Shown here: positions 769-28,464 of the stretch, piece by piece
How the letters are laid out: each line of letters begins with the position of its first letter
Position numbering within the stretch: position 1 is the stretch's first letter
Origin: Acidobacteriota bacterium
Lineage (GTDB): Bacteria; Acidobacteriota; UBA6911
DNA: 64,000 nucleotides
NCBI GenBank assembly: GCA_963664705.1
Contig: OY761556.1
Coordinates: forward strand, 2,912,001 to 2,976,000
Direction of reading: 5' to 3'
The notes under the pieces: generated by a model
What the model was told of the DNA's origin: nothing
Database searches by the model: none
The model's input: only the letters and a program-made list of their open reading frames with translations
Program-made: the position numbers and the translations under genes

Positions 769-800
769 GGTTGTCCGGATGTCGCGTTCCAGGAAGTATG
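769..800 (-). repeat. Palindromic cassette-boundary site, GAC class (the only GAC copy on the minus strand)
   Basis: Minus strand ACTTCCTGGA-ACGCGAC-ATCCGGAC; spacer at 781-787 is identical to those at 14834, 20930 and 24415. Confidence 0.55.
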
Positions 801-854
801 AAATTTTAATTTCATGGGGGATTCAAGGACATTCCGGGTGGCAATAAATTCGCC

Positions 855-1478
855 TTATTCTCCGGGCTGCGCGGGGTAGGTCAGTATCGACAAGCCGGTT
901 GCTATATCCGAGCGGTCTCGCCGCTTCGGGTGGGCGAGGTGAATCATATTTCTAAGTGGTTTTTCGCCTGTAGAAAAGGATCCGCTAATTGTTATCGAGA
1001 CGGAACTCCCGCAAGGATCATTGTCTTCGGTGCAGTATGTCCAGATTAAAACATCGATCTCCTGATTCGGCTTTGTTGTTATTGGCGTAACTGTATGTCC
1101 TAATTCACGCATCCAGAGAATAGATCGTTTTGGCTTTATCGAGAAAGAGAAGGTCTTTCGCGGACTCTCTATAATTCTGCCGGGCTCTGCACGACATACT
1201 GGGACCTTTGTTTTGAACGCCGTCACCCCGTCCAGCTGTGCTTCCAACACCATCGAAATTCCGGATCGTTCTGCACCCATTCCAGGGAGCCGCTCACAGA
1301 CAGCGGTAACAGCCCCCAAAAAAGTCAAGGCGGTGATCGGCAGTCGCGAGTTTAGAAGGGCTCTCAGCATGACGGCTTCCAGGGAGACAATTATTTCCAT
1401 ACTGTTAGACACACGAAAGTCACCGAAGGTTCCCACCATCTGAGTTGTCTTTGTCAAACGGCTCTGTCGAACCGTCAA
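855..1478 (-). CDS. Hypothetical protein (start uncertain)
   Basis: 207-aa ORF filling the interval; no recognised motif. Confidence 0.4.
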   Translation of the reverse strand: MTVRQSRLTKTTQMVGTFGDFRVSNSMEIIVSLEAVMLRALLNSRLPITALTFLGAVTAVCERLPGMGAERSGISMVLEAQLDGVTAFKTKVPVCRAEPGRIIESPRKTFSFSIKPKRSILWMRELGHTVTPITTKPNQEIDVLIWTYCTEDNDPCGSSVSITISGSFSTGEKPLRNMIHLAHPKRRDRSDIATGLSILTYPAQPGE

Positions 1479-1850
1479 ATATGTGCACGTATATCTTTAT
1501 GCTTATGGCTCGATGAATGAAGCAAAAGAACGCATGAAGGTGTATCCGGAGTTTTACAACAGCTTAATCACAGATCGTGTGATTCTCCGGGGCTTGCCCA
1601 AATCAACCTGTTTATGTTCGCGTTGGAATTGTGATATATAAGTTATTGAGGAATCCTGATGCGGAACTAGCGACAAACTCTAGACAACGTTGTTGGGCAA
1701 CCAACCGCTTCTATTTCGGTCGGTATGGCAGCTGTTGTCTTGTTGCGTCGCGCGCATGAGGATGTTTTGCTTTCGCACTCCGGATCCCCGCCAACCCAAC
1801 AGACACGCAATGCACCATGCTCCTCCGACCGCGATTCAGAAGGAGGTAGC

Positions 1851-3365
1851 GTGACATCCCGATTTATTCTTTTCGACAATGTGTCATACCGTTATGAGTC
1901 TATGCCCGAGCCATTATTGCACGGCCTCAGTATAAGTTTTCCGACAGGCTGGACGGGCGTTGTTGGAGCAAACGGCACAGGAAAGACTACGGTGTTGAAA
2001 CTAGCCTGCGGTCTGCTGAGGCCAAGAGCCGGATTGATACAATCACCAGGAAGTGCTTCTTATTGCGCCCAGCGCACCGATGACCTTCCTGAGTTGTTTT
2101 TATCGCTCATTGAAGCCCTCGATGGTCCAGCTTGCGAGTTAAAAGGACGATTGGGCGTGCAAAGTGATTGGGGCCGGCGCTGGGACTCCCTCAGTCATGG
2201 CGAACGGAAGCGCGCACAGATAGCCGTCGCGCTCTGGCAGCAGCCGGCGGCGCTGGCGCTGGACGAACCCACCAACCATATCGATGTGGATGCGCGTGCA
2301 ATGCTCATCTCGGCTCTGCAAGACTATCGGGGGATCGGCCTGTTGGTAAGCCACGACCGTGATCTTCTTGACTCCTTGTGCCAACGCTGTCTCTTCCTTA
2401 ATCCGCCCGAGGCGGTCTTGCGCCAGGGCAACTACTCGTCCGGACGCCGCGAATTGACCCGGGAGGAGGAGCATGCACGGGACCTGAAGGAGCTTGCGAA
2501 GCAGCAGGTTGCGCGCTTGAAAACAGAAGTCGATAGGCGTGCTTCAAAAGCGCGGAACGCCGATCGCAGGCGTTCAAAAAGGGACTTGGATTTGAGAGAT
2601 CATGACGGGCGCAGGCGAATCGATTTCGCGCGATTGAGCGGAGTGGATGCTCATGCCGGCAAGTTGGCGAGGCAAATGCAATCCCGGCTGAACCGGGCTC
2701 GTCGTGTCGCAGAGGGAATCAATATCCGGAAACGATACGAACTTGGGATCTGGATTGAGGGAGAATGTTGCAGGCGTGACACACTATTCAGATTGGGCGC
2801 AGGCACTCTTCTGCTTGGAGGAGACCATAAACTCAGCCACCCTGACCTGACCATGCTGCCGTCAGATCGCATAGCCCTAACCGGCGCCAATGGGACGGGG
2901 AAAAGTACGCTCGTGTGCCGCATCCTGAACACAATCGATCTGCCGCCAGAGCGGCTGACCTACCTGCCCCAGGAGGTCGATGTAAAATCCTCCTGTAAAG
3001 TTTTGGCAGACATCCGGCGCCAACCGCCTGAAACGCTCGGGAAGATCATGAATGTGGTTAGCAGGCTCGGCTCGCGGCCGGATGCCTTACTGGACAGTGT
3101 CGAGCCTAGTCCGGGTGAACTTCGAAAGCTATTGCTGGCCATTGGTATCGCCTTGCGGCCCTATCTAATCATTATGGATGAACCGACCAATCACCTTGAT
3201 CTGCCTTCGATTGAGTGCCTGGAGGAAGCGCTAGCCGACTGTCCCTGTGGTCTGTTGCTGGTCAGTCATGACGGGCAGTTTCTGCGGCGACTTACGCAAA
3301 TACGCTGGCATATCACTCGAGTGGCATCCGATGAGCCTAATCAGATGCTGCTGAGCGTAACCTAA
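1851..3365 (+). CDS. ABC-F family ATPase (two ABC domains, no transmembrane segment)
   Basis: Two Walker A motifs (GANGTGKT, GANGTGKS), two DEPTNH motifs, VSHD, charged linker; GTG start at 1851 after AGGAGG. Confidence 0.9.
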   Translation: MTSRFILFDNVSYRYESMPEPLLHGLSISFPTGWTGVVGANGTGKTTVLKLACGLLRPRAGLIQSPGSASYCAQRTDDLPELFLSLIEALDGPACELKGRLGVQSDWGRRWDSLSHGERKRAQIAVALWQQPAALALDEPTNHIDVDARAMLISALQDYRGIGLLVSHDRDLLDSLCQRCLFLNPPEAVLRQGNYSSGRRELTREEEHARDLKELAKQQVARLKTEVDRRASKARNADRRRSKRDLDLRDHDGRRRIDFARLSGVDAHAGKLARQMQSRLNRARRVAEGINIRKRYELGIWIEGECCRRDTLFRLGAGTLLLGGDHKLSHPDLTMLPSDRIALTGANGTGKSTLVCRILNTIDLPPERLTYLPQEVDVKSSCKVLADIRRQPPETLGKIMNVVSRLGSRPDALLDSVEPSPGELRKLLLAIGIALRPYLIIMDEPTNHLDLPSIECLEEALADCPCGLLLVSHDGQFLRRLTQIRWHITRVASDEPNQMLLSVT

Positions 3366-3409
3366 CCCCATTTTCACAGCCTGTAAGAAGCGCCGGAGGA
3401 ATTTAAAAT

Positions 3410-3426
3410 CTAAGACTTCGCGGGAC
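3410..3426 (+). repeat. Degenerate boundary site (spacer plus R-arm), GAC class
   Basis: CTAAGAC-TTCGCGGGA; L-arm not recognisable. Confidence 0.4.
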
Positions 3427-3616
3427 TTGGCTCCGTCCTTTATGCCCTGAGGCTTCCAAAGAGTCGATCATGATTGTGCTGGCTACGAGAGATCGTCTCA
3501 TTGATAATTACTTGCAGCATACACCGCCGGCACGCGCGTGAAGATGTCGACTACTTTGCGGGCTGCAGACGAGTATTGGCCATTGTTGGTTAGCAGGAAC
3601 CTTAGCGAGGACGACC

Positions 3617-5098: not shown

Positions 5099-5473
5099 TC
5101 GGCTCAATGCGCGAGAAATTCGTGGGATTCGTCTTAAGAATGCTTCACCTAATCTTCCGTCCTGCGTTCCACTCGCAAACTCCAACGCAAGCGTAAAAAC
5201 CAGCGGTCGTTCTAGCGGCCAACATTCTGGCGCAATTTTTCATATTGGGACTGCGGGACAATTGCATTGTGATTCCGAGACATTTGCCCTCCAGGGAGGA
5301 TCTCCGGACCCGAAACGAGATTTTGTATCCTGCAGAAACTTGGCTATGGAGTAGATGCAATATTCGATTCTATTTGCTCTTGAATTTTTCAATCATATGA
5401 TGATAAGTCCCAATTTACGACCATCCTGGAAACGCAAACCGCAGTAGAATGCAGTGTGGTCGGCAGCAGATAT

Positions 5474-5512
5474 ACATTTTGGCGTTATCTCCCACGAGGG
5501 GACTTTTTAGGA
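5474..5512 (+). repeat. Palindromic boundary site, GAC class
   Basis: ACATTTTGGCGTTATCTCCCACG-AGGGGAC-TTTTTAGGA (spacer 5497-5503). Confidence 0.75.
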
Positions 5513-5552
5513 TTTGCAGGCCCCCTTCATCTACATCGAGATCGGATAGGAG

Positions 5553-5945: not shown

Positions 5946-5984
5946 AAAAAGGAGCGGATAGCTTAACATGAACTCCAATGAGTT

Positions 5985-10541: not shown

Positions 10542-10566
10542 GGTAAATCACCCTCCCTTTTTTAAA

Positions 10567-10914: not shown

Positions 10915-10950
10915 GACAATTCCTCCAATGCGACTTCCATGGGAATTGTC
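10915..10950 (+). repeat. Palindromic boundary site, GAC class
   Basis: GACAATTCCTCCA-ATGCGAC-TTCCATGGGAATTGTC (spacer 10928-10934); outer arms are complementary. Confidence 0.7.
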
Positions 10951-11110
10951 CGAATATCTGTCCATTAGCAAACGTAACGCATTACCTATGTTGATTTGAT
11001 GTTTATCTTTGCCGGTAAGCTGCGCATCTCGCGCACATATTTTCCAATGATATAATGGGCATTGACCCACAAATTAACTTAAGTTCGAGTTCCGAAATTC
11101 GGAGGAACGG

Positions 11111-12256
11111 ATGAAGGAAATCCTTAATATCAGCCTTATGCTTCTTTTCTATGCAGGCGGTCAGCCGTATACCGTCAGTGATTATATTATTTCGACAATC
11201 GCTGGAGGCATGAAATCTGTTGGAGACGAACGGGAAGGCGGACCCGCCGAGCAGGCATATTTTGGTTCAATGTTGGGTCTTACGGTAGCTCCTAATGGCG
11301 CGATCTACGTTGCAGATCCAGGAAGGCACAGAATTTGCAAAATCACCCCTGATGGGAAGATGTTTAAGGTTGCGGGTAGAGGCAGCCTCCCGGAACCATG
11401 CTGTATCGAGACATCAGCACGGAAGGGATATCAATTCAGGGTCGAGGGGAAAGCCGCCTTTATTGACGGTGAACCGGCGTCTACCGTTGATCTGGATTTT
11501 CCAATCGGGGTAGCGATCGATATGGATGGTAACACTTACATATCGGATGCATCCAATAACCGCATAAATAAGGTGGATAAAGCAGGACTCATTTACACGA
11601 TAGCCGGTGATGGACTCCCAGGTTATAGCGGAGACGGCGGCCCCGCTAAGCAGGCGCGCCTCCATTATCCAACAGGCATAGCGGTGGACAATTTGGGGAA
11701 TTTATATATTGCCGATAGCGCCAATAATCGCATTCGAATGATCGACTCAAAGGGAATGATTCAGACCATAGCCGGAAATGGAAAATCAAAAGATAGCAAA
11801 AATGGAGATCTTGCAATAAAAGCCAGCCTCAAAAAACCATCCGGAGTTGCAGTTAACGCCAACAACATTGTCTACATTGCAGATAGCGTTGATGCTAGGA
11901 TCAAACGGATTAATCGAGATGGCCGTATTGAATTTGTTGCGGGTACAGGAAGACATGAATTTGTGGGGGACGAAATCCCTGCTATCCAATCGGGACTGTT
12001 TGCGCCCTCTGGCATTGCAATAGACGCGGCCGATAACCTGTACATTGCCGAAACGGGGCGCGTTCGGAAGATTGATCGAAATGGCATCATACACACAATT
12101 GCAGGTGGCGTAACAGCAGCAAGATCACGTCACGACGGCGTTCTTGGCATTCGATCCTACATATTTCCGGATGGGATTGCAGTTGATGCTGCGGGTAAGG
12201 TTTATATTGCGGATCAAGGCACAATCCGCCGCCTCACTGCTGATCACTCCCAATAA
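11111..12256 (+). CDS. NHL-repeat beta-propeller protein (teneurin-like)
   Basis: Repeated P-x-G-I-A-V-D...YIAD..N.RI units and GDGGPA. Confidence 0.92.
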   Translation: MKEILNISLMLLFYAGGQPYTVSDYIISTIAGGMKSVGDEREGGPAEQAYFGSMLGLTVAPNGAIYVADPGRHRICKITPDGKMFKVAGRGSLPEPCCIETSARKGYQFRVEGKAAFIDGEPASTVDLDFPIGVAIDMDGNTYISDASNNRINKVDKAGLIYTIAGDGLPGYSGDGGPAKQARLHYPTGIAVDNLGNLYIADSANNRIRMIDSKGMIQTIAGNGKSKDSKNGDLAIKASLKKPSGVAVNANNIVYIADSVDARIKRINRDGRIEFVAGTGRHEFVGDEIPAIQSGLFAPSGIAIDAADNLYIAETGRVRKIDRNGIIHTIAGGVTAARSRHDGVLGIRSYIFPDGIAVDAAGKVYIADQGTIRRLTADHSQ

Positions 12257-12279
12257 ACGGCATCCTGGGAGATTGCCCC
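12247..12279 (-). repeat. Palindromic boundary site, CGT class; arm contains the NHL gene stop codon
   Basis: Plus strand CTCCCAATAA-ACGGCAT-CCTGGGAGATTGCCCC (spacer 12257-12263). Confidence 0.7.
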
Positions 12280-12312: not shown

Positions 12313-12342
12313 GACGCTTCCCCGACCGAGACTGCGGGAAAT
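12313..12342 (+). repeat. Palindromic boundary site, GAC class
   Basis: CTTCCCCGA-CCGAGAC-TGCGGGAA (spacer 12326-12332). Confidence 0.55.
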
Positions 12343-12592
12343 TTTCGCTAGTGATTGTGTGCCCAAAATACTGTCCAAGATAGTGATGAGGCTTTTGATC
12401 CTTGATGCGAGTGGACGAATGTTCATTCCTCGCCTGACCAAGGGAGTCCTCCGTGAATTAGCCCTAGCAGTTCCCGAGTCTTCTTTTCGTTTTCGCTGCA
12501 GTCATGCAGCCAATAAAAGAGAACGTCAAATTGTCATTGCCAAGTGTCTGGCAACGACTGAATTGGTGTCTGTCCTCGATTTTCCCGAATAT

Positions 12593-13918
12593 CTATTGCC
12601 GGATTTCGATCGCGAGATGGCTCCCGACGACGGAGATCCAGTCGTTATAACTAATTTTCGACACGGACCTGATGTGGCGGAAGTTGCACTTGAGCCTTCC
12701 CAATTCAGTGCCGGAATGGTCCTTCATATCAAAAACGAGATATGCGGCGGGATACTCGGCCGTCTTGTCGACAGCATCCAGGTAATACATAACATCCGTG
12801 TCATCCTTGCTCACCAGAAGGCGCTCTGCCAGATTGGCATCCCCCGGACGCCACGAGCAATAGTCCGCCCCTTCCCGCAGCTTGGCTGCCGTGCTGCTCG
12901 ACATTTTCTGATCTGACAGGATCTGGGGAAAACCGATCTTGCCCATCCACGTTTGAGGATTGAAGCTGATTCTAAACTCGTCTTTCCTCACATTGACAAT
13001 CATTGACTGGGCATCCGGTGTCAGCCAGCCGCCTGCAGGCTTCCCCGTCTCGCCATCTGCCAAAGGACCGCGTACAGGTGCGATGACAGATGGTGTGGGT
13101 CCCGGGGAATTGTCGGTCGGAGGCAGCCCCTCATCGCCAAATGACAGATTTACGCTCGTTTGAGCTTCCATCCCATCCGACAGAATGAAATAGGCGGATG
13201 CGCCGAAGCCGAGTTCCTGCCTGCTCAGGACTCCGCGGCGATCCACAATCGACGTCCGGCAAATCAGGAATTGATAGGTCACGTCGTTTGATCTTACAGC
13301 CTTGCATTCCCAGCGATTCGCCACTTCCGGTGCATATTTGTCTTCCCGAGTTGGTGCCATGAGACTGTAAATACCTCCGGACTTTCGTCGACCCGTCAGG
13401 TACAAGTATGGAAGTTCGAAATCATATGTTTGTTTCCTCGAGTCAAAGAAGGCACTTACCGGCGCATTATTATTAACGTCTACCTGACTCAGGGGGATTA
13501 GTCCATCGTGGTAGGCATCCATGCTCGATCCTACGGGAAACTGAGTCGTCACTTGTATCGATCCTCGATCGCCTTTGCAGGACCCCTTGAAGATATACAC
13601 GGACAGATCTGCCTTCGTTTCTTCAAGGCTGTTGCGGCACCAAGCGCCCAGGGTGCGATCTTCATTGAAGAAAGCAACCGTTCTCCACTGTCCTTTGCTG
13701 GCCACGAGATCGGGGCAACGGATCGGTTTAGCCATTTCAAATACGCGCCGAAGATCCTCCTCGCGGAATATGCCGAAGATCTTGTGCAGCTGCTCAAAGA
13801 ATTTTGAGCTAAAGGCGCTTTCATCCGGCTGCGGCAGCTGAAGCTGGCTCTGCGCAAATAGAACCTGGCTTCCGGACATGACAAAGGTAAGTAAAGCTAT
13901 TGCGGTTATTTTCCTAAT
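12593..13918 (-). CDS. Secreted hypothetical protein, probable ATT start
   Basis: The 428-aa ORF extends in frame by 13 codons to an ATT placed 6 nt after GGAGG, giving a complete signal peptide. Confidence 0.75.
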   Translation of the reverse strand: MRKITAIALLTFVMSGSQVLFAQSQLQLPQPDESAFSSKFFEQLHKIFGIFREEDLRRVFEMAKPIRCPDLVASKGQWRTVAFFNEDRTLGAWCRNSLEETKADLSVYIFKGSCKGDRGSIQVTTQFPVGSSMDAYHDGLIPLSQVDVNNNAPVSAFFDSRKQTYDFELPYLYLTGRRKSGGIYSLMAPTREDKYAPEVANRWECKAVRSNDVTYQFLICRTSIVDRRGVLSRQELGFGASAYFILSDGMEAQTSVNLSFGDEGLPPTDNSPGPTPSVIAPVRGPLADGETGKPAGGWLTPDAQSMIVNVRKDEFRISFNPQTWMGKIGFPQILSDQKMSSSTAAKLREGADYCSWRPGDANLAERLLVSKDDTDVMYYLDAVDKTAEYPAAYLVFDMKDHSGTELGRLKCNFRHIRSVSKISYNDWISVVGSHLAIEIRQ

Positions 13919-14291
13919 GGCGGTCCTCCACTACTTTTCCGGTTCAACCAGATCCTTTGCCGAGATCGATCGGACCGACAATGCTATCACCCTTTGACGA
14001 GTGCAGAAAGACCTTCCGCCCGGGGATGCTATTTGTCGAGGGGGATGCTCGAGTAAGATCGCGCTCCGGAAAGGAGCGGAACTAAAATCTTCGATAGGCG
14101 CGTTAACCGTCCGCTGACAAACCGATTCCAGTCATTGCAGCCTATCCAGCACACGCGCGGATCTCATTAATCCAATGGCTCATATCGTAACTCACACCGG
14201 CGGACTGCATGTCCATAGGAAATCGACTTTGGATGATTTAACTATCGCAAATTGCTAGAATGCTGCGCAAGAGCACTTCGGAGGATCAAAT

Positions 14292-14765: not shown

Positions 14766-14865
14766 GGTCGGTGCCGGTCCCATTTAACTACGCGGAGCGG
14801 CGCAGGCTTTGCGTTATGGCGTTATCTCCGCGAACGCGACATAACCGGCCAATCTCTGCCCGTTT

Positions 14866-16002
14866 TTAGGCTCTGCGGAGTTTGCCCGCCTCTATGATTA
14901 TTTTGGTAAGGCGATTGGAGAGCCGGTTGAGGCATTTGCGTTCAGCACTAATCGGCAGCCCTCGCCGAAACATCTCCATTGCACGTTGAGTTGCGTGCAA
15001 TGAATCGATTACCCCATCTAAACCAGTTCGAATCGGATCCGACGTTCTCGGCTGAGGGACTAAATGTCGAGGTTTTGAATGAGCCAGTTGAAACTCTCTC
15101 TGAAGATCCTTCAAGGCCACTTCGATATAGAGCATTGTCATATTCGGAGAAGTGTGGCCGAGTAATTTCATCAGCACAGGAAAACTGACGCCGGAGCGAA
15201 GCATCTCCGTGGCATAGGTATGGCGAAACTGGTGTGGAACGATGCGAGTGGAGATTTCGAGAGAATAACAAACTTCATGCAGATAATCGCGAAGGCCACG
15301 AACGAGCGCGTACTTGGTGCTGGGCCGCGCCAGAAGTCGACCATCAGGAGGACACGGATCTAGGAAACGAAAGAATCGCAAGCGTTGGATAATCGCGACT
15401 ATCGACGAATCCACCGGGACCATCCGTTCCGTTTTGAGTTTGCCAAGTGGTACGTGAATGGCCCACTGGCGGAGACCAGTCGAGCGGAGGCAATCGACGG
15501 GCAAATCGGCGCACTCGCCAATACGCATGCCGGTATGGCGGAGGAGCAGAAAGACATTCGATCCTAGATCGTTGCGCTTGACGAACTCCTTCTGCAGAAG
15601 CTGATCCTGTTCGGCGGTGAGCGGACGTGCAAGTCTATGCGGGCGGCGCGGAATATCTTCACGACGAATCAGGTGGGCAACTTGAGGAAGCTGTTTGGTC
15701 CACGCCAGTTCTATGAACAGAGGGCGCAAAGCAATGAGCTTACCAATATAGGTAGATGTGGCGAGCGGAGGCGTCTGGGCGCGCAAGTGGGACATCCAGC
15801 CGAGGAGGTGTGGCTCCCGCCGCAGTTGATCTAGGGCGTTTACCTCCGGGTAGTTGGTGCCGAGATAACTAAGGAAGTTACGTACGGTCCCGCGATATTG
15901 GACATGGCTTGCAGAGCCGAGTGCAGTGCAGAGCGAATCGACCGCGCGATCAAAGAGATCCACCAGTGGATGTGAGAGGGGAGGACGCCAGGAGCGTTTC
16001 AT
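14866..16002 (-). CDS. Tyrosine recombinase/integrase 2
   Basis: GMRIGE, K (GKLK), HQFRH and LGH...Y catalytic residues; ATGA overlap with the upstream recombinase. Confidence 0.95.
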   Translation of the reverse strand: MKRSWRPPLSHPLVDLFDRAVDSLCTALGSASHVQYRGTVRNFLSYLGTNYPEVNALDQLRREPHLLGWMSHLRAQTPPLATSTYIGKLIALRPLFIELAWTKQLPQVAHLIRREDIPRRPHRLARPLTAEQDQLLQKEFVKRNDLGSNVFLLLRHTGMRIGECADLPVDCLRSTGLRQWAIHVPLGKLKTERMVPVDSSIVAIIQRLRFFRFLDPCPPDGRLLARPSTKYALVRGLRDYLHEVCYSLEISTRIVPHQFRHTYATEMLRSGVSFPVLMKLLGHTSPNMTMLYIEVALKDLQREFQLAHSKPRHLVPQPRTSDPIRTGLDGVIDSLHATQRAMEMFRRGLPISAERKCLNRLSNRLTKIIIEAGKLRRA

Positions 16003-17045
16003 GAAGGAAGCCTCGGAAGGGGGCGGACTTGCAGCGCTACTGCGCGCGTATACTGCTGGTAAACGTCTTGTGGTGTGATCTGCACATAATGCAGGGTCGT
16101 CTGGATATCGGAATGCCCCATCAACTGCATAAGTGCCGGCAGGCTGATTCCGGCGCGTATCATATCGGAAGCGAATGTGTGCCGGAAGCGATGTGGGTGA
16201 GCAAGCGGAATGCCAGTGTGCTTGCGATGGTAACGGAACAATGACCGCAGTCCGGCCAGAGTCATACGGAACCCGCGGGCCGGTCCCTTGAGCGAGACGA
16301 AAAGCGCAGCGGTGGCAACCTGGGGTCGTTCCCTCCGCCGATAGTGGTCGAGGAGTTGCACTGTCTCCGGCGCCAGTGGCAGTAAGCGTATTTTGTTACC
16401 CTTGCCGCGTACGCGCAGCTGCGCTTCGGAGAGCAACAAGTCGTCCTCATTCAGCCCCAACACTTCGGCCGAGCGAAGCCCTTGAAGAAGCATTACTCCT
16501 ACGAGAGCCAAATCGCGAGCCGTACGGAAACTGGACCAAAAACGCGCCACCTCGTCCACCGAAAGCGGAACAAGTTGGCGTTTGGGCACTTTCACTCGCA
16601 GCCGGCTTATGGCTAGGCGCCGACGGCCTAGGCCCAGCGGTCCACGCCGCAAATAAACATGTTGGAAGCCCTGTGCCATGGACGATGGGGAGTCGGGGAA
16701 CTGGTTGCGAAGAGCACGATCGGCAACGCCAACACGGTGATTGATTGTGTAACTGGAAATCGGGGGTTGGTGGTTACACTGGAACTTCAGATAATCCTGG
16801 AGAGTCGATTCGGTCAGGTCGGCTGTGCAAACCTCAGCGGTGTGATGAAGACTCTCCCACCAGCGAACAAAATGTAGCAGGTAGTAAGCCCATGCTCGCA
16901 GAGTAGTATCCGCCAACCGACGGACATACTCGTGATCAAGGTAGCGATTGATCCAGCCAACCTCCTGACCGGTTTCTTGCTCGACCACACGAACCGGGCT
17001 TTGTGCTGTGTTGCGAATCTGCGGGCGAATCACACAAAATTTCAT
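15999..17045 (-). CDS. Tyrosine recombinase/integrase 1 (N-terminal SAM-like domain)
   Basis: GLRSAE, GKGNK, HRFRH, MGHSDIQTTLHY; likely start MKFCVIR at 17045. Confidence 0.95.
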   Translation of the reverse strand: MKFCVIRPQIRNTAQSPVRVVEQETGQEVGWINRYLDHEYVRRLADTTLRAWAYYLLHFVRWWESLHHTAEVCTADLTESTLQDYLKFQCNHQPPISSYTINHRVGVADRALRNQFPDSPSSMAQGFQHVYLRRGPLGLGRRRLAISRLRVKVPKRQLVPLSVDEVARFWSSFRTARDLALVGVMLLQGLRSAEVLGLNEDDLLLSEAQLRVRGKGNKIRLLPLAPETVQLLDHYRRRERPQVATAALFVSLKGPARGFRMTLAGLRSLFRYHRKHTGIPLAHPHRFRHTFASDMIRAGISLPALMQLMGHSDIQTTLHYVQITPQDVYQQYTRAVALQVRPLPRLPS

Positions 17046-17082
17046 AGCTGAGCCAAGCTCCAGAAAAGAATGTGTATCAGAG

Positions 17083-17400
17083 TCAGGCAGCAGGAAGTTC
17101 AAGTACCTGGTAGACTCCATCTTTGAATGCGATCAGATCTCGCGTCAGGAGTTCATCACGGGCGCCGGTAAGTTCGTGGCGGTGATGAATCTCGAGGAGT
17201 TCCGCCATACGTTCGTCGGAATAAAAACTCACACCATCCCGATTAGCAACAGCGACCAAGATTAAGTAGAGAAGCTTTTCCAATCGGGTTAGTCCCTGAT
17301 CGAAACCCTGCCGAAAAAAACGATGGTCAATCCAACTGAAAGAACCGCGGATGGTGCGGATTCGATCCGGCTGTAGTGGTTGAGGTCGTTTGTTCATCAT
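17083..17400 (-). CDS. Small winged-helix-like accessory protein
   Basis: FSWIDHRF...LYLILVAVANRDGVSFYSD...YQVLEL; resembles small ORFs I recall from IS21-like and recombinase elements. Confidence 0.7.
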   Translation of the reverse strand: MMNKRPQPLQPDRIRTIRGSFSWIDHRFFRQGFDQGLTRLEKLLYLILVAVANRDGVSFYSDERMAELLEIHHRHELTGARDELLTRDLIAFKDGVYQVLELPAA

Positions 17401-17479
17401 GCTTTCCCCATTTTGTACATGCCGAAATTAACGAAGCTATATGGAATGAATCAATATGTCGGGACTAAATCTAAAAAGC

Positions 17480-17983
17480 TCATGGGCGGCTGGGGCAACG
17501 ATCCGACCAACGTCTCTCTCGTTCCAGAACTCGTTCGAGAGCGCGGCGACATGCATAGGAACAGAAGCGTTGCAGGGGCGACCGCCGGCTGCGGTGGAAT
17601 TCTTGGTATCAACCAGGGCGATCGCAGGAACACGAAAATAAATTTCTTATAATGACCCTCGCGTCGCCGGCCGGGCCCTTGTTTTGTTGCGTGCGCTCCT
17701 TTTGCCGCACTCTGTATCTGTGGCTTTGAACGCGGCGAACCTGCTTTCCACCATCAGTTTTGCGGTACTTTTGCCGGGCTTTCCACTCTCTCCATTTTCC
17801 CGCCTCATTGCGGCAATGCTCGCTACAATAGCGTGCTCGGGGGTGTTCCGGCCGGAATATGCGACCGCAGCCTTTCAGCAAACACGCACGGGCGCGCGGC
17901 CATCTGGCTTTTCGCTTGGTATGGGGTCTTGTTCCTTTTGCTTGATTTTGAAGGAGAATTATCGGATGTTCACGAGGGCCCAT
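17480..17983 (-). pseudogene. Zinc-binding repeat protein with an in-frame TGA at a Cys position (nonsense mutation or Sec)
   Basis: CLLKGC..YCSEHCR is repeated as CDRPG*..FCSYACR; the frame stays open for 42 codons past the TGA at 17609-17611. Confidence 0.6.
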
Positions 17984-18348
17984 GGGAGTTGCCTCTCCCA
18001 GAAGCTCAAGCCTCGAGGGGGACCCATTCCCCTTCGGGGCGCACTGAGCACAATTGGATGCAATATCCTTAACCCTGCTCTTAGATTAGGATCGGAATTA
18101 AAACTGGCGGGATTACTCGTAAATCAAATTCAATTTTCCGAGCAGTCATAGTCCTTTGGGGTTGTAATTGCGGAGCACCCGAAAAAAGGCGGAGAAGAAT
18201 AAGGGAAAAGCTATTTATCTCACTTCATAATTTGAAGATTCACGGAAATTCTTTATAGACCATTTTTGATTATTGGCCGGTTATTTTGGACTTCGTGGGA
18301 GTAAGCCGAAAAAATCAAATACTTACACTTGATGGTACAATGATGTCG

Positions 18349-18876: not shown

Positions 18877-18903
18877 CCAAGATTTATCTGACCATGATGC
18901 TAA

Positions 18904-18943
18904 TTTACATTTTGGCGTCATCTCCCGCAATCGGACTTCTGGA
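18904..18943 (+). repeat. Palindromic boundary site, GAC class
   Basis: TTTACATTTTGGCGTCATCTCCCGCA-ATCGGAC-TTCTGGA; first 23 nt are identical to 23534-23556. Confidence 0.85.
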
Positions 18944-18995
18944 CCGGAATACTTTGGGATTTCGCAAATGGCGGATCAGCATCGGTTCAGGTAGA

Positions 18996-19434: not shown

Positions 19435-19470
19435 GGGTTACTTCCTCGAATCCGACTTCAGGACAATTGC
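19435..19470 (+). repeat. Palindromic boundary site, GAC class
   Basis: GGGTTACTTCCTCGA-ATCCGAC-TTCAGGACAATTGC (spacer 19450-19456). Confidence 0.75.
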
Positions 19471-20257: not shown

Positions 20258-20285
20258 GATTTCCCACAATCGGACTTATGGGGAC
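20258..20285 (+). repeat. Palindromic boundary site, GAC class
   Basis: GATTTCCCACA-ATCGGAC-TTATGGGGAC (spacer 20269-20275). Confidence 0.75.
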
Positions 20286-20395
20286 CGTTATCCGGCGGAT
20301 GTGATAACATCGCCATCCTAACCGATGCGGATGTCGCCGCGTTGCAGAAGAAAGGCACATAAATCAGTACTGTCACTTACCCGACCGAGGCGCTC

Positions 20396-20911: not shown

Positions 20912-20916
20912 ATCGG

Positions 20917-20946
20917 ATTCTTTCCCATAACGCGACTTCTCAGGAG
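20917..20946 (+). repeat. Palindromic boundary site, GAC class
   Basis: TTCTTTCCCATA-ACGCGAC-TTCTCAGGAG (spacer 20930-20936). Confidence 0.75.
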
Positions 20947-21041
20947 CCAGCGAGAAAATTGTGGATTTCCAGAACTCTTTGCGACCACCAAAGCATTTAT
21001 TTGATAGGTGACTGTGGCTTCTATTGTCGATACGGATTTGC

Positions 21042-22194: not shown

Positions 22195-22226
22195 GGCAAC
22201 TTCCTCGATTCCGACTTCCTGGGACT
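22195..22226 (+). repeat. Palindromic boundary site, GAC class
   Basis: GGCAACTTCCTCGA-TTCCGAC-TTCCTGGGAC (spacer 22209-22215). Confidence 0.75.
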
Positions 22227-22291
22227 AATCCGGCCGCAGTGCTAAAATGCTTTGTAAAAAGGCGGCTGCAATCTTGTTACCATAACGGATC

Positions 22292-23461
22292 ATGCTGATA
22301 CCTATGGCTGAAGAGCAATGCAATTATGAAAGACTCTCAGTGGCACAGCGAGCGGCTTTGCGCATCGTATCCGATCGCGCGTCCCTCCTGGAATCCCAGG
22401 CTTACTCCAAATTGCCATCGCTTTTGAGGAACTGCGGTTGTGTCGAGGGCATGTTTGATGAAGCCATGCAGAGCATCCGCGCGAATGCAAGAGTAGCCGT
22501 GCATTTTCATCCTGACCGATTCGGTTCAAAGCCGTTAACCGTTGCTGAATCTCTTCTGAATGAGGGGCTCTACCTGAATCAATTTGAGACAGGCCTGTCG
22601 AGTGGTGGACGATCCGCGTTTCCCGGCGGTGATCGAGATCGATGGGAGAGAGACCTTTTTGGCGGCGCCTATCATGCTCCGGGTGTAACGGCAGCTGAGC
22701 GACCAAAGTATGGAGCGCTGATGCTGGTGCGCCATCCGGACGGGCCAACACCGCGTTTTGGTTCCTGCTATTTCATTCTTCGGCAATCCGTCTCCAATCG
22801 TTGCACGTTCACATTTTCAGGGAGTGAGCAAGCACTTGCGATTAAGCGTCTTGGGACCATGGAAAAGATGCTTAGCGTGATGGTGGCGTTACTGAGCGAA
22901 GTGGCGAGTGGTGAGGGCACAAAAGTTCCCTGGCCGCCATACGTAACCTCGACATTGGGCATTGAAAGCGTGACCATCGCTCAACTCCTCAATGTTTTTT
23001 GTCGGGATTTGTCCCTTCCCCCGACGGATCCTTCTACGGGAAAACCGGGACGCGTGCTGGATTCATGCGTTGAAGCGCAGGTTCATGGACCGATCGATTT
23101 GCGCTGTGACATTGAACAGCTTGTCGTTGACCCATCATTTGATGGAACTCCGATCGGAGAGACACTGATCGAAATCTCTCGAAAATACGATATTCCGATC
23201 CAGTATCATTGCGGATTTCAGCTTTCCATTCATGATGTCCCTGACAATTTTCGAGGCCCTGAAATGCCACGGCTTGCACGACGAATTGCGCTGAAGGGAC
23301 TAATGAATGCAGCCGTAATCGGTGCTGCCGAGGCCACTCTATGCTGGAAGCCTGAAACCTGGCAAGACTGGGGATCCTATGAGGAATCATTGCAACATCT
23401 AAAACAGCTCTGGCATGTGGTGGTGCACTATGGGAGCCCGCAACAGCAAGACAGTGCCTGA
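22292..23461 (+). CDS. DUF3626 domain protein
   Basis: HFHPDR, NQFETGLSSG, ERPKYGAL, PRFGSCY, EAQVHG, LKQLWHVVV. Confidence 0.85.
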   Translation: MLIPMAEEQCNYERLSVAQRAALRIVSDRASLLESQAYSKLPSLLRNCGCVEGMFDEAMQSIRANARVAVHFHPDRFGSKPLTVAESLLNEGLYLNQFETGLSSGGRSAFPGGDRDRWERDLFGGAYHAPGVTAAERPKYGALMLVRHPDGPTPRFGSCYFILRQSVSNRCTFTFSGSEQALAIKRLGTMEKMLSVMVALLSEVASGEGTKVPWPPYVTSTLGIESVTIAQLLNVFCRDLSLPPTDPSTGKPGRVLDSCVEAQVHGPIDLRCDIEQLVVDPSFDGTPIGETLIEISRKYDIPIQYHCGFQLSIHDVPDNFRGPEMPRLARRIALKGLMNAAVIGAAEATLCWKPETWQDWGSYEESLQHLKQLWHVVVHYGSPQQQDSA

Positions 23462-23490
23462 CATCACCTAGTGGGTAAACCGATTTGAAT

Positions 23491-23523
23491 TTCTAATAAA
23501 CGGCAATCGCAGAGACGGCACAA
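23491..23523 (-). repeat. Palindromic boundary site, CGT class
   Basis: Plus strand TTCTAATAA-ACGGCAA-TCGCAGAGACGGCACAA (spacer 23500-23506). Confidence 0.6.
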
Positions 23524-23533
23524 TCAAGGCTTC

Positions 23534-23576
23534 TTTACATTTTGGCGTCATCTCCCACAATGCGACTTCCTGGGAC
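23534..23576 (+). repeat. Palindromic boundary site, GAC class (closest to consensus)
   Basis: TTTACATTTTGGCGTCATCTCCCACA-ATGCGAC-TTCCTGGGAC (spacer 23560-23566). Confidence 0.85.
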
Positions 23577-23645
23577 TTTCGAACATTTTTCCAATTTGGG
23601 TAGGCATTATTGGGCCTTTTACGTTCTTGTCATCAGGAACCCGTG

Positions 23646-23676
23646 ATGTAATCCCAGATCCGGACTCTATTGGGAC
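23646..23676 (+). repeat. Palindromic boundary site, GAC class
   Basis: GTAATCCCAGA-TCCGGAC-TCTATTGGGAC (spacer 23659-23665). Confidence 0.6.
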
Positions 23677-23734
23677 TGTTTGAAATTAACACGTTTGATC
23701 CCGTGAGAAGCCGTTCTTATTTGCAGGAGCACAA

Positions 23735-24361: not shown

Positions 24362-24395
24362 ATCTGAGTAGCCATTTGAGGGCAGTGATTAACCA

Positions 24396-24428
24396 TTTGG
24401 CGTTATCTCCCACAACGCGACTTCAGGA
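24396..24428 (+). repeat. Palindromic boundary site, GAC class
   Basis: TTTGGCGTTATCTCCCACA-ACGCGAC-TTCAGGA (spacer 24415-24421). Confidence 0.85.
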
Positions 24429-24509
24429 TAAGAGCTTTCTTCCCAATCACTATTATGTTAGGCCAGGCAAGTTATATAATGACTGCACTCGGAGCAGACA
24501 GGAGTTGTT

Positions 24510-24677
24510 ATGAATACTGCACTTCTTTTTGTCGCAATGATAGGAAGTTCGGTTGCGACTGCTTGCGTTGCCGCAGCAAAACATAGGAGTGTCATTTTGT
24601 GGACGATTATAAGTTTAACTATTCCAATCCTGCCCTTGATCGTAGTACTCATCTTGCCAAGCAAGACTTCCGGATAA
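24510..24677 (+). CDS. 55-aa small membrane protein (not in the ORF track)
   Basis: AGGAG RBS; MNTALLFVAMIGSSVATACVAAAKHRSVILWTIISLTIPILPLIVVLILPSKTSG*. Confidence 0.7.
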   Translation: MNTALLFVAMIGSSVATACVAAAKHRSVILWTIISLTIPILPLIVVLILPSKTSG

Positions 24678-24684
24678 ACGGCCA
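24669..24684 (-). repeat. Partial boundary site, CGT class; arm contains a stop codon
   Basis: Plus strand TCCGGATAA-ACGGCCA (spacer 24678-24684). Confidence 0.5.
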
Positions 24685-24713
24685 GAACCGACGCAAGGAG
24701 GAGGAATTTGCAT

Positions 24714-24753
24714 TGTGGCGTTATGTCCTCGAATCGGACTACAGGACAATTAC
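24714..24753 (+). repeat. Palindromic boundary site, GAC class
   Basis: TGTGGCGTTATGTCCTCGA-ATCGGAC-TACAGGACAATTAC (spacer 24733-24739). Confidence 0.8.
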
Positions 24754-24781
24754 ATCCGGATTTCGGGACAGTTTAATTGAC

Positions 24782-25270
24782 TTATTTATCACTACGTATA
24801 TTTCTTCTGAAATAATATAGGTGAGGTTCTTTCGGATTGCGACCAAACTCAAATCCATCCTGGAAACGTGTTATCGGGCCGTATGATGAAAATGTGTTCA
24901 TGAAATAAATTCCTTCTTCAATGCCATCCCGGAGATTTAACACAATAGCTACATTTAACCGATGATTGTAGACTCGCACCGGCTTTAGTTCCTTTATGGC
25001 ATCAGACCAGCAAACGGATGGAATCTCGAATTCGCCCTTGTCAAAGAATTCTGGAGGAGACCATGCTTTTCCTGTCGACGGGAGCAAGTTTTCACACTTA
25101 CTGTTGCTTTCGAAAGCGGCTGCCCTTATTTCGTTAATGCTTCGATTCGATTTCAGAATTATGTGGCTGAAGCCAACTGCGCTTGTTATCAGTTCCTGAG
25201 AAAAGACGGCCATGCCAACAATGAGAATAATTAAAAGCAACGACGCCACGCATATTAGATAATTTTTCAT
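24782..25270 (-). CDS. Hypothetical membrane-anchored or exported protein
   Basis: GGAGG RBS before the ATG at 25270; hydrophobic N-terminus. Confidence 0.7.
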   Translation of the reverse strand: MKNYLICVASLLLIILIVGMAVFSQELITSAVGFSHIILKSNRSINEIRAAAFESNSKCENLLPSTGKAWSPPEFFDKGEFEIPSVCWSDAIKELKPVRVYNHRLNVAIVLNLRDGIEEGIYFMNTFSSYGPITRFQDGFEFGRNPKEPHLYYFRRNIRSDK

Positions 25271-25479
25271 AGAATGCCTCCATTGGCATGGAGCATTTTC
25301 AGCAGTCAATGGAATTTTCCATTGTGTTTATGCATCCCAGCAATTGTGTCCATTATATACAAAGTTAGAGGTTATCCCGATCAATATATTCGACAACTCC
25401 TCGCCGAGGAGCATTTGCTATCATATGTATTAAGAACGATTTGTGGCATTTTATGGCGCTTACTGGCCTGAAACGGGAA

Positions 25480-25729
25480 TTAACCGGCCAATATTGCACG
25501 TATTATGGAATTTCCCCATGAGATTTGGATAGGAAATCAGCTAAATAGCTTGTCCCATATTCTTCTTTTTTCTTCTTCAGATTTGATGCGAGCGGCTTAT
25601 TTACAGGGTGCTGCGACCAGCAAAAATGCGGGCCTACTTATCCACACATATTGGTTCTTGATCGTGTTATAGTCAAAGAAGCAATAGACTTCGCATACCC
25701 TGAAAAACTGGCAGAGATTGGCCGGTTAA
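25480..25729 (+). mobile_element. 250-bp non-autonomous relative of the dual-recombinase element, inserted into a CGT-class site
   Basis: Ends TTAACCGGCCAAT / ATTGGCCGGTTAA; both subterminal regions resemble the two ends of 14841-18284; flanked by ACGGGAA and ACGGCAA. Confidence 0.8.
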
Positions 25730-25758
25730 ACGGCAATGTGGGAAACTGTAAATTTCTG

Positions 25759-26022
25759 TTAATTAATCAGGTCTTTTACTTTTTGCCATTCGGATATTGC
25801 TGCCGCACAGACGTCATCAACGGGCCACATTTGCCCCCAGAGACGATCATGCCTTGTTGCGGCTTCCATAACCAATTCTATGTTGGCTCCCGTATTTACC
25901 AAAGCCAGTAAGACTGCCGAATCGGCAAGAAGTATCCGAAAAATTTGCCTGTCTTCAGCTTGGTGAGTCTTGTTTGCGGCTTGATCGAGGCTGATGATGT
26001 ACTGCGCAATCTTTCGTCTCAT
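25759..26022 (-). CDS. Hypothetical protein
   Basis: 87-aa ORF between two CGT-class sites. Confidence 0.55.
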   Translation of the reverse strand: MRRKIAQYIISLDQAANKTHQAEDRQIFRILLADSAVLLALVNTGANIELVMEAATRHDRLWGQMWPVDDVCAAAISEWQKVKDLIN

Positions 26023-26143
26023 ATTCTTTGCTTTCTAGCAGTAACCTCGCCGTTTTTATGTCAATTGGCTGCAAATAATGTCCTCGATTCAGAGGCATGA
26101 ATCAATGCGAAAACAAACAATTGGAATCATTCAAAGGGCATAG

Positions 26144-26174
26144 ATCCCAAGAAACGGCAATGTGGGAAGTAACC
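26144..26174 (-). repeat. Palindromic boundary site, CGT class
   Basis: Plus strand ATCCCAAGAA-ACGGCAA-TGTGGGAAGTAACC; 17 nt are identical to 25728-25744. Confidence 0.8.
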
Positions 26175-26223
26175 GGCTCCGGCGGGCATTGTGGAGTTAA
26201 TTGTGATTCCGGGACGGTAGTTT

Positions 26224-26538
26224 TCAAGCAGCGTCAATATTCACTCTCATCTTCAGACCTGCTTCATCAATAAGTTCCTGGAGTGAAAGGCGCACGAATT
26301 GCTCCGGACTGCGGCCCAGAATCTTGGCGAAGCGCGCGGCCCGTTCTGCGCCTACAACCTTGCGGCCTTTTTCGATGTCGCAAAGGTGCGAAGGGGAAAC
26401 GCCGAGTTTGCGAGCAAAGGCAGTTTGAGACATTTCCTCACCCAGGCGGATCGACTCTATAAGCCCCCCTAGGGTTAGCGGCCTACCGGCAACCCGTTCC
26501 AAATATTTCATTGTGTTGCTTTTTGTTTTAGTACGCAT
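26224..26538 (-). CDS. XRE-family HTH antitoxin (HigA-like)
   Basis: MSQTAFARKLGVSPSHLCDIEKGRK; start overlaps the end of the toxin gene. Confidence 0.85.
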   Translation of the reverse strand: MRTKTKSNTMKYLERVAGRPLTLGGLIESIRLGEEMSQTAFARKLGVSPSHLCDIEKGRKVVGAERAARFAKILGRSPEQFVRLSLQELIDEAGLKMRVNIDAA

Positions 26539-26771
26539 GCTTTGAAATCTCCTCCACCGAAACAAATTCGATAGAACCGTTGTCATACACTCGATAAATA
26601 GCCCTGTATGCTCGGCTCAATCGGATAGATCGCTGCCCCATTCGGTTGCCATGCAGGGGCTCGTCATGATAGACATAATGGAGTGATCGGTCTCTAGCAT
26701 GTAATATCGTGGGTTACAGCTGAAGTCGTGGTGACGAAGCTGCAGAGCCATAAAACATGAGGAGACCGATC

Positions 26772-27866
26772 ATGGCAGATTGTATCACTTGGGTAGGGAT
26801 GGATGATTCAGCAAAAAAGATAAACGTCGCAATTTTTCGCGGGCAGGAAAGTAACCCTCGAGAAGAACTTGTTGTATCAAACGACAGTACGGGGCTGGGT
26901 CGGTTAGCGAAAAAGCTAAGGGCATTTGAAGATGATGTACGGTGCGTCTACGAAGCGGGCGTTAATGGATACTATTTGCAGCGCTATTTGGCCAAACATG
27001 GGATTTCTTGTGAGGTTGCGGCCCCTTCGTTGACTCCGAGACGAGCGGGGAAAAAAGTAAAAACGGATAAGCTGGATGCGAAAGCCTTGGGCAAATTGTA
27101 CCGAGCGGGAGAACTAACATGTATTGTGATCCCGCAAAAAGAACAGGAAAGTCTGCGAGATCTGGTGCGTGCGCGAGAAGACGCATTGGAAGACCAGCAG
27201 CGAGCACGGCATCGATTAGCACGGTTTCTGATGCGACGTGGATTGAAATATCCGCAGGGCAAGAACTGGTCGCTTGGGCACCTAAAGTGGATTAAGAGCC
27301 TTGTGTTTGAGGATGATGGGGATCAAACAGTACTGGAGGAATATCGACAGGCGCTTGAGCAACAGACGGAGCGGTTGAAAACATTCCAGGGAAAAATCGA
27401 GGAAGTTGCAAAACAGCCGAACTATCAAAAGCGAGTCAGCTATTTGATGGCGCTAAAAGGCGTTCAGGTTCTGACGGCGATGACGATTATCGCAGAAGCG
27501 CTCGATTTAAGACGGTTCGTTGATGCGCCTTCGTTTATGGCCGCTATTGGGGTGGTGCCTTCGGAAAGCAGCTCAGGTGAACTTGAAAGACGGGGAAGGA
27601 TAACCAAAACGGGAAACAGCCACCTACGTAGGGTGCTGATCGAAAGCGCCTGGCACTACCGTCATTCTTCAGTAGCTGGCAAAACTCTCAAGAAACGACG
27701 AGAGTGTTTGCCGGCAGAAGTTATCGAGATTGCACAACGTTGCGATAAGCGATTGAATCAAAAATTCCGACGCATGCTCAACCGAGGGAAAGAAAGACAA
27801 AAGATCGCGGTTGCGGTAAGTCGAGAATTGGCAGGATTTATCTGGGCTATCGGTCGTGTTGCATGA
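26772..27866 (+). CDS. IS110 family DEDD recombinase/transposase
   Basis: VGMD, YEAG, KTDKLDA, ESSSG..RGRITKTGNSHLRRVLIESAW; GAGGAG RBS. Confidence 0.95.
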   Translation: MADCITWVGMDDSAKKINVAIFRGQESNPREELVVSNDSTGLGRLAKKLRAFEDDVRCVYEAGVNGYYLQRYLAKHGISCEVAAPSLTPRRAGKKVKTDKLDAKALGKLYRAGELTCIVIPQKEQESLRDLVRAREDALEDQQRARHRLARFLMRRGLKYPQGKNWSLGHLKWIKSLVFEDDGDQTVLEEYRQALEQQTERLKTFQGKIEEVAKQPNYQKRVSYLMALKGVQVLTAMTIIAEALDLRRFVDAPSFMAAIGVVPSESSSGELERRGRITKTGNSHLRRVLIESAWHYRHSSVAGKTLKKRRECLPAEVIEIAQRCDKRLNQKFRRMLNRGKERQKIAVAVSRELAGFIWAIGRVA

Positions 27867-27929
27867 CATAAGGCACCAGCTCTTGCAGCTATTTTGTTCT
27901 TCAATGGATTAATAACGGAAACATTCGGT

Positions 27930-28125
27930 TAGTGAACGGAACAGGAGATCGAGTTCCAGGCTTCGAAAGGAGAAACCTCGACCTGGCTATGTTGGTATGG
28001 GAAACCAGAATCCACGGAAGTAGAGTGAGGCCGCTCCCGATGAATCAGTTGTCATGCGTGCTTATCGACCCGCGAATATCAGATTGATTATCGTCGCTGT
28101 TGCCAACTCGATCCCCTGTTCTTTT
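27930..28125 (+). ncRNA. Putative bridge/seek RNA of the IS1111 element (boundaries approximate)
   Basis: 3' NCR contains ACCTGGCTAT (matches the target) and ATATCAGA (matches the circle junction); framed by pairing AACAGGAGATCGAGTT / AACTCGATCCCCTGTT. Confidence 0.7.
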
Positions 28126-28435
28126 TACTGGCTGATTTATTTATGAACCGAAGAAAACCAAAATGAACGAACAAGGAACGGATTGATTGTACTTGACCGA
28201 TCACTCCATATCAGCCAGGTATTTTTCTCACCTCTTCGAGTCCACGCTCCTCAACATCTTCCACCCAGGCGGCGAGGTTTTCCACGATGTGACGTGGTAC
28301 CGTTTGCAGCTGCTTACGCGCTCGCTTGCTTAGCTCCACCTGCAATATCATATCGATTCTAGTTATACACCTGTCAGGTGAATGTGTCTATCAAGTATTT
28401 GAATGCTTGCTTTTTCAAGTGGGAAATGAGGATGA

Positions 28436-28464
28436 CCCTAAGAAACGGCATTCGGAGAAACTAC
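28436..28464 (-). repeat. Palindromic boundary site, CGT class (last one before the tRNA)
   Basis: Plus strand CCCTAAGAA-ACGGCAT-TCGGAGAAACTAC (spacer 28445-28451). Confidence 0.65.

Follow-up and report, generated by a model that had tools for sequence, protein, structure and literature searches.

Several described systems come close to the gene array considered here. Integrons and clusters of attC sites lacking integron-integrases (CALINs), as the accessible part of PMC8618304 presents them (IntI, attI, attC), share with it mostly single-gene arrays, a recombinase beside a site whose first module varies, a conserved crossover triplet and arrays that persist without the enzyme. The pdif/xrs dif modules of Acinetobacter, in the available portions of three reports (PMC13141974, 10.1101/2022.12.17.520857, PMC12907356), share an 11-6-11 geometry with a XerC-like arm, modules lying between inverted and direct sites, a choice of partner set by the centre and sites that are targeted by parasites. 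Integrative mobile elements exploiting Xer (IMEX), such as VGJ-phi and TLC-phi, are comparable in that identity of the centre is on one side, single strand exchange is allowed and the second arm is degenerate, as far as the accessible sections of PMC5357621 go. The array lies in a stretch of 64,000 nt, hereafter the window (assembly GCA_963664705.1, contig OY761556.1, positions 2,912,001 to 2,976,000), of a 6.89-Mb Acidobacteriota genome labelled G000. An earlier note, made from the letters of the window, had proposed a platform for gene shuffling whose sites have tyrosine-recombinase geometry but belong neither to attC nor to standard pdif. This proposal is supported by clustered, mostly intergenic sites, by homology that ends at the sites and by the lack of IntI and of attC cores. 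That note missed both the division of the sites into two classes and the candidate recombinase, here called YRx; the recombinase genes present in the window belong to a parasite. We consider it rather probable that the window array is one of six clusters in G000 in which sites bound mostly single-gene modules, that the sites likely serve cassette exchange driven by YRx and that, YRx being absent from G000, its arrays are probably orphaned.

Results

Positions are in window coordinates unless marked G000; other G labels denote comparison genomes and L labels loci. Sites were scored with a position-weight model trained on 124 sites from G000 and its relatives, window sites included. Window positions were sorted at 16 bits or more, and the cut-off for strong sites across G000 was 21 bits or more; the earliest, loose pattern search was too noisy for counting. 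The sites are two-armed and 28 bp long, and instead of the single repeat family first supposed they form two oppositely oriented classes. Type A consists of a left arm, three variable bases, GAC and a right arm, and points along the array, while type B has the same arms with a centre ending in CGT, lies on the opposite strand and points against the array. The palindrome with a long left arm and a 7-nt spacer described in the earlier note was right in part: the left extension (TTTTGGCG) is present on only 47 of the 124 sites and the dyad agrees with a centre of 6 bp; an inserted two-recombinase element uses the 7-nt frame. The supposed unlikeness to dif and pdif similarly holds for the XerD arm, which the core site lacks, but not for the geometry, which is 11-6-11 with XerC-like arms.

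Among the 23 positions listed in the earlier note 19 proved to be sites or split halves: 17 score at least 16 bits (781 on the minus strand, 5497, 12257, 12326, 14834, 18930, 19450, 20269, 20930, 22209, 23500, 23560, 24415, 24733, 25730, 26154 and 28445), and 18285 and 25473 are the second halves of sites split by inserted elements. Positions 10928 (9.3 bits) and 24678 (-0.5 bits) are probably sites in degenerate form; 3410 and 23659 have negative scores, keep at most the right arm and are unsupported. Two sites had been overlooked, 5245 with a good score (23.0 bits) and 5417 in a decayed state (11.7 bits). A second model, built from 18 sites outside the window that were originally found by the window-trained model and hence not fully independent, recovered 13 of the listed positions, 5245 and one match at 39591. 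To the right of the tRNA-Arg, where no copy had been seen, no site reaches 16 bits and the best final-model score is 15.9 bits.

The recurring palindromic sites are real. Across G000 46 sites reach the cut-off, with about 2 expected in a shuffled genome. They are not spread evenly, since 44 of them lie in six regions totalling 140 kb; these regions were drawn around the site matches, and it is therefore the clustering that is meaningful and not the boundaries. The sites are mostly intergenic (20 of 322 lie inside open reading frames, ORFs, of at least 150 aa) and the genes between them are unrelated to each other and mostly unannotated. The impression of about one gene per interval was correct: one ORF of at least 100 aa is found in 61 of 91 A-to-A intervals and in 30 of 43 A-to-B intervals. 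The largest gene is co-oriented in 60 of 74 A-to-A intervals, and the genes between A and B show no orientation bias (20 with, 20 against). Adjacent pairs were counted across G000 and its relatives, and the rule of A forward and B reverse is kept by 188 of the 197 pairs less than 4 kb apart and broken by nine. A-A pairs number 94, A-reversed B 46, reversed B-A 42 and B-B 6, which gives 88 inverted A/B pairs against 94 direct A-A pairs. Arrays occur on both replichores without replichore polarity.

Array loci, to which a metagenome scan contributed 67 more with 169 model sites, were compared all against all, and an end was counted if in both partners it lay no more than 16 nt from the centre of a site. 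Homology ends at a site in both partners in 49 of 224 informative ends against 0.05 by chance. With the inserted element and one tandem-repeat locus removed, the count is 40 of 184 against 0.10 by chance (maximum 2 in 300 draws); the sites mark places at which matching between related strains ends. The majority of homology ends lie away from sites, and many of the alignments concerned involve insertion sequences, flanking genes or decayed copies. An A-to-B module shared by L022 and L047 is 95.3% identical over 1715 nt, has both ends at sites, is 86% identical to the window and carries a gene matching the window ORF 12593-13879. It runs from the A centre to the B site. The two loci have different bases at the first four positions of the 7-nt frame, and the triplet and right arm travel with the module: the variable centre bases remain joined to the left arm, and the triplet to the right one. 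An A-to-A module common to L022 and L025 also has both ends at sites, and L021 carries one A-to-A module twice. The joints found in contigs of the source sample are short-sided, and other arrays and copies of the inserted element account for them; the only raw-read run yielded four reads. Higher contig depth over 18.8-26.3 kb (1.5-1.8 times the left neighbour) was rejected as a signal, as ordinary contigs vary as much (12.7 to 19.5 in X3). To the left of the window, at G000 2,898,638-2,899,795 (L009), lies a 4Fe-4S gene that shares 92% identity with a module in L185 and L033; no site scores there, and the array may formerly have extended further to the left.

A transcription-factor site, promoter element or repeat of the repetitive extragenic palindromic type would account for the mostly intergenic location of the motif and for the TTGACA-like hexamer in the extension, where TTAACA, TTTACA and TTGACA are commonest. 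A -10 box at the expected distance from such a hexamer is not enriched in the extended sites; hexamer and missing -10 enrichment are also what was seen with regard to an integron-type cassette promoter (Pc). Sites stand on either side of genes of both orientations. Confinement to six variable regions and the two-class orientation rule speak against this reading too, and the enrichment of homology ends largely refutes it; we give it hardly any credence. An Rfam search of window 1-30000 returned tRNA only. A dispersed palindromic repeat family at 34549-34940, right of the tRNA, is unrelated to the cassette sites.

Clustering of the proteins near sites exposed YRx, a 324-aa Xer-like tyrosine recombinase whose gene ends about 90 nt before an extended A site. 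It keeps R161, K188, H258, R261, H283 and Y293, aligns with XerC and XerD with no large insertion and scores 43.5 bits against the IntI model TIGR02249 (cut-off 265). Its predicted structure is poor (predicted local distance difference test, pLDDT, 61) and the fold search matched generic recombinases only. A protein search gave at least 7990 sequences at E 1e-30 among 8000 scored. The simple-recombinase subgroups in the accessible part of PMC8138268 include none described for Acidobacteria. In G000 there are 27 PF00589 matches and no IntI, none of the matches exceeding the TIGR02249 cut-off.

YRx is present in 19 of 50 other genomes of the family, often broken. Core-pattern counts in family genomes allow one mismatch, and as controls gave 0 to 4 matches per genome single matches may be due to chance. 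At least five matches occur in 16 of 19 YRx-positive and 12 of 32 YRx-negative genomes (Fisher p 0.0015, kin not being independent). A site lies within about 1.5 kb of 22 of 30 YRx loci and of 8 of 57 loci of other recombinases, some loci being two views of one place, and 29 of the 32 nearest distinct sites point away from the YRx gene. In 20-kb views A sites are mostly near YRx and B sites further out, facing back, with L278 and L280 as exceptions; in some YRx modules the gene is preceded by a B site and followed by an A site, each directed away from it. All seven loci of seven that share the YRx 3' end together with the extended site then lead into different DNA. Outside the class, homologues of YRx in G343 (66%) and on plasmid pACIX905 of Granulicella tundricola (64%) are accompanied by GAC and CGT sites with shifted arms. 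The plasmid, which belongs to the cultured strain MP5ACTX9 and carries the homologue ACIX9_RS23090 with both site types, has six more sites between annotated genes further along, in a stretch with no control matches. On the sites, the orientation rule, the breakpoints and the linkage to YRx, cassette exchange by YRx appears likely.

In several loci a gene of about 250 aa with a weak MarR-type helix-turn-helix match lies back-to-back with YRx. A 65% homologue of it is present at G000 6,405,696-6,406,340, and about 8 kb around this copy contain neither a site nor a remnant of YRx. The integrase of the tRNA-Arg island was considered as the enzyme of the arrays and rejected: it occurs in 13 of 51 genomes, and its presence does not follow site number (p 0.34). 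L006 (4000-15400) and L007 each hold a tRNA-Arg island; the two islands have related integrases and genes of the primase type, and the one in L006 carries a three-site array as cargo.

The gaps from B to A peak at 77-83 nt and reflect a conserved B-linker-A unit, ending in an extended A site, that is found at 39 of 147 extended sites. An attC- or CTX-like hairpin substrate was rejected for this unit: 36 units gave mean folding z of -0.5 and 0.0 with no consensus structure, and the inner arms show no covariation (p 0.20), the outer arms being slightly alike (p 0.025). The sites had been said to lack attC cores, and a simple pattern screen of window 1-29000 indeed found 0 RYYYAAC/GTTRRRY core pairs against 5.1 in shuffles. 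The unit may represent a YRx module without the gene. Its strong conservation, and the YRx modules with both sites pointing outward, which look like an autonomous element and its deletion derivative, would also suit a model that treats the sites not as cassette sites of an integron-like array but as termini of small nested transposons, which YRx would mobilise much as Tn916 or Tn554 move; left arms would then be the element ends and a right-arm/right-arm junction the target. This model is improbable in our view, because A-to-A direct repeats are the commonest pairs and move as units (L022/L025 and the duplication in L021), and because the centres are hybrids split at the triplet and not whole coupling sequences. 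Extended left arms fused to right arms with most of the centre missing were seen at G000 5,884,050, 5,887,818, 5,894,159, 5,019,483 and 4,129,870; three of the five keep only two bases, and they may be dead sites from faulty excision.

The inserted element of 3.45 kb (14841-18291) has terminal inverted repeats and two tyrosine-recombinase genes (15999-17120 and 14866-16002; PF00589) encoding 373 and 378 aa. All four copies in G000 sit in A sites, with the target centre kept at the left and TTTGGAC fixed at the right end, and an 82%-identical copy in G018 has the same footprint. Insertions at the triplet thus comprise four copies in G000, one in G018, the derivative in a B site of the window and one end in L171, and these footprints show that a tyrosine-recombinase element crosses over at the triplet. 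The element is a parasite of the sites. That its two recombinases created the cassettes or move them would agree with this preference for A sites, with the derivative in a B site and with one site elsewhere that has a TTTGGAC centre. We hold this to be very improbable, as the arms of the element differ from the cassette arms, the element occurs in 9 of 51 family genomes without tracking site number (Fisher p 0.49) and more distant relatives with the same terminal repeat occupy other kinds of target. The site with the TTTGGAC heptamer is an intact A site at G000 5,876,395 and is possibly an excision scar. A 105-aa ORF of the element (17083-17400) has a weak match to a phage replication-initiator family and perhaps encodes an accessory factor.

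The Tn554, SE and RIT elements, in the available portions of PMC10214605 and PMC8138268, resemble this element in having several tyrosine recombinases and terminal inverted repeats, and in keeping the target centre at the left and their own centre at the right. According to the same portions, RIT has three tyrosine-recombinase genes, while each copy here has two PF00589 genes; the right-end heptamer is constant here in five copies from two genomes and does not change with each hop; and the present lineage differs in targeting cassette sites.

G000 has both xerC and xerD, and its dif, conserved in the family, lies at G000 2,036,985 near the skew switch and xerD. The main rival to YRx is the host XerC/XerD pair, which would recombine the sites as in the pdif modules of Acinetobacter, YRx being a passenger turned cassette. 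Since XerC and XerD are the only recombinases common to all six array-bearing genomes (30/35 and 30/67 matches compared), host Xer was favoured at first. The XerC arm of dif fits the left-arm profile in the 11-6-11 register only (p 9e-4) and fits the right arm as well, at p 5e-3. The left extension matches the XerD arm (p 3e-3, in a register chosen after looking), and its commonest hexamers mirror XerD-arm variants in the dif sites of relatives; to the right arm the XerD arm fits poorly (p 0.045). Arrays persist in genomes without YRx, and degenerate XerD arms are known for TLC and gonococcal genetic island (GGI) sites from the accessible part of PMC5357621. The distribution speaks against the host pair: the dif pattern is found in 65 of 121 genomes of the class and the strict site pattern in 9 of 401 genomes of the phylum, and the arrays are at least 0.7 Mb from dif (the nearest cluster at about 0.7 Mb) and on both replichores. 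The host pair would also leave unexplained why sites point away from YRx on both sides, and why arms are shifted beside its more distant homologues. We therefore judge the host pair unlikely as the agent, although YRx and XerCD may both act. Several extra dif-like sites with a full XerD arm occur in G032 (seven extra), G091, G109 and others; this suggests ordinary Xer-exploiting elements in the family, separate from the cassette system.

Of the 27 genome stretches in which the exact extended motif was found, 19 are titled Acidobacteriota, and the extended motif occurs in 14 of 29 genomes of the same genus with no control matches. With one mismatch allowed, the core pattern is present in 42 of 50 family genomes and reaches at least five matches in 27. 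Protein clusters near sites are mostly singletons (464 of 543). Eight matches fell beyond Acidobacteriota, six of them without a model site, one with a single site and one in a bin with an array; this bin, titled Desulfomonilaceae, could be mis-binned, and presence outside Acidobacteriota is unproven. Viral contigs contained no exact extended site, and one phage carries a YRx relative (35%) without sites.

The features of the window array are given in Table 1. The linker between 5417 and 5497 also matches G000 5,028,307-5,028,382, the match ending at the site there, and a 308-nt match of 86% between the 18930 site and G000 5,876,103-5,876,409 ends at the site in both places. The B site at 12257 overlaps the stop codon of the NHL-repeat gene, and a gene 73% identical to the DUF3626 gene is found in array locus L058. 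The IS110-family insertion sequence has 10 further full-length copies. At 26224-28350 a helix-turn-helix gene (Pfam) lies beside a short gene split by this copy, and the short gene is presumably the toxin of a toxin-antitoxin pair.

Table 1. Sites, modules and inserted elements of the array, in window coordinates.
Feature	Position	Strand	Score or remark
Type A site, points left	770..797	-	27.8 bits; with 5245 brackets the divergent central segment, the place held by YRx in relatives
Extended type A site	5217..5262	+	23.0 bits
Decayed B (5417), 80-nt linker, extended A (5497)	5406..5514	+	model scores
A-to-B module: degenerate A (10928), NHL-repeat gene 11111-12256, B (12257)	10918..12273	+
A site (12326) and module with ORF 12593-13879 (minus strand)	12316..14058	+
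Left part of extended A site split by two-recombinase element	14806..14840	+
Two-recombinase element, 3.45 kb, inserted at GAC of A site	14841..18291	-
Extended A site (18930)	18902..18947	+	26.7 bits
A site (19450)	19440..19467	+	36.4 bits
A site (20269)	20259..20286	+	30.3 bits
A site (20930)	20920..20947	+	31.0 bits
A-to-B module: A (22209), DUF3626 gene 22292-23461, B (23500)	22199..23516	+
Extended A site (23560), 60 nt past B 23500	23532..23577	+	34.0 bits
Extended A site (24415)	24387..24432	+	31.7 bits
Degenerate B (24678), then extended A (24733)	24667..24750	+	model scores
B site split by 250-nt gene-less element derivative (25480-25729)	25462..25746	-
B site (26154)	26143..26170	-	36.9 bits
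IS110-family insertion sequence inside last module	26670..28219	+	Pfam; outside the site system
Terminal B site (28445), array end	28434..28461	-	27.3 bits
tRNA-Arg(CCT) bordering array	29014..29088	-	no site beyond

Discussion

From these results we conclude that the cassette system is real and apparently undescribed; no description of these sites or of YRx was found in a literature search outside which most subscription papers lay. We lean, by a little more than even chances, towards a third, independently evolved cassette platform beside integrons and dif modules, in which a large acidobacterial family of Xer-like recombinases would serve arrays running outward both ways, with two non-interchangeable double-stranded sites (GAC and CGT) and with genes inserted, excised and swapped in place. 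YRx would bind both arms of the double-stranded site, and strands would be exchanged beside the right arm, where three bases of identity would suffice and replication would complete the event. In VGJ-phi, replication resolves the junction. It is by analogy with that phage, as described in the accessible part of PMC5357621, that exchange of a single strand is proposed. A sites would pair with other A sites exclusively, and B sites with other B sites, the two classes acting as separate addresses. A-by-A events would insert and excise modules in direct repeat, in the manner of integrons, with the main entry at the site behind YRx, and paired events at A and B would swap the intervening gene without inverting it, as a natural cassette exchange with two non-matching sites.

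Several observations weigh against exchange by YRx. YRx was not found in G000, the best match (29%) being to XerC, and many sites are present in YRx-negative genomes including G000, three of which (G037, G005 and G096) are negative even at E 1e-8. Eight of the 30 YRx loci have no nearby site, some homologues at 62-67% show decayed sites only, and around homologues at 35-50% no such sites were found nearby. The breakpoint counts of 49 in 224 and 40 in 184 are not independent events, because the loci were chosen for holding sites and many pairs are related. Contigs of the source sample, a weak test, contained neither an excised circle nor an empty allele. The case for the crossover chemistry is one of analogy, and since the arms resemble the XerC arm and the extension the XerD arm, action of host Xer is possible.

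The lack of YRx makes the arrays of G000 look orphaned, and the same applies to 11 other site-rich genomes. In G000 the place for YRx would be the divergent segment from 781 to 5245. Sites that are split, collapsed or interrupted by insertion sequences would fit, by analogy with CALINs, an array that has lost its enzyme.

The system occurs in at least two Acidobacteriota classes, both on chromosomes and on a plasmid. Screens with attC or dif models would likely miss it, and the accessory-gene pool it holds is therefore uncounted. If our reading is true, it would rank among the main suppliers of accessory genes to a phylum that is dominant in soil and would be a case of natural recombinase-mediated cassette exchange. 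One small enzyme, together with a 28-bp site that has two orthogonal centres, would then make a compact cassette-exchange tool.

The layout of the system is integron-like and the shape of its sites is dif-module-like, yet it fails defining tests of both. Unlike integrons, it has no IntI, no insertion of the IntI type, no RYYYAAC/GTTRRRY cores and no supported hairpin; its 28-bp sites fall into two opposite classes, its arrays extend outward on both sides of the recombinase gene and its A-B genes are without orientation bias. IMEX, as far as the available text describes them, integrate at dif through host XerCD, while the sites here are many and far from dif. In comparison with the dif modules of Acinetobacter, so far as those partly accessible reports describe them, the core site has no conserved XerD arm and direct repeats dominate instead of alternation, three bases of the centre are fixed, the sites fall into two classes and a separate recombinase is linked to them.

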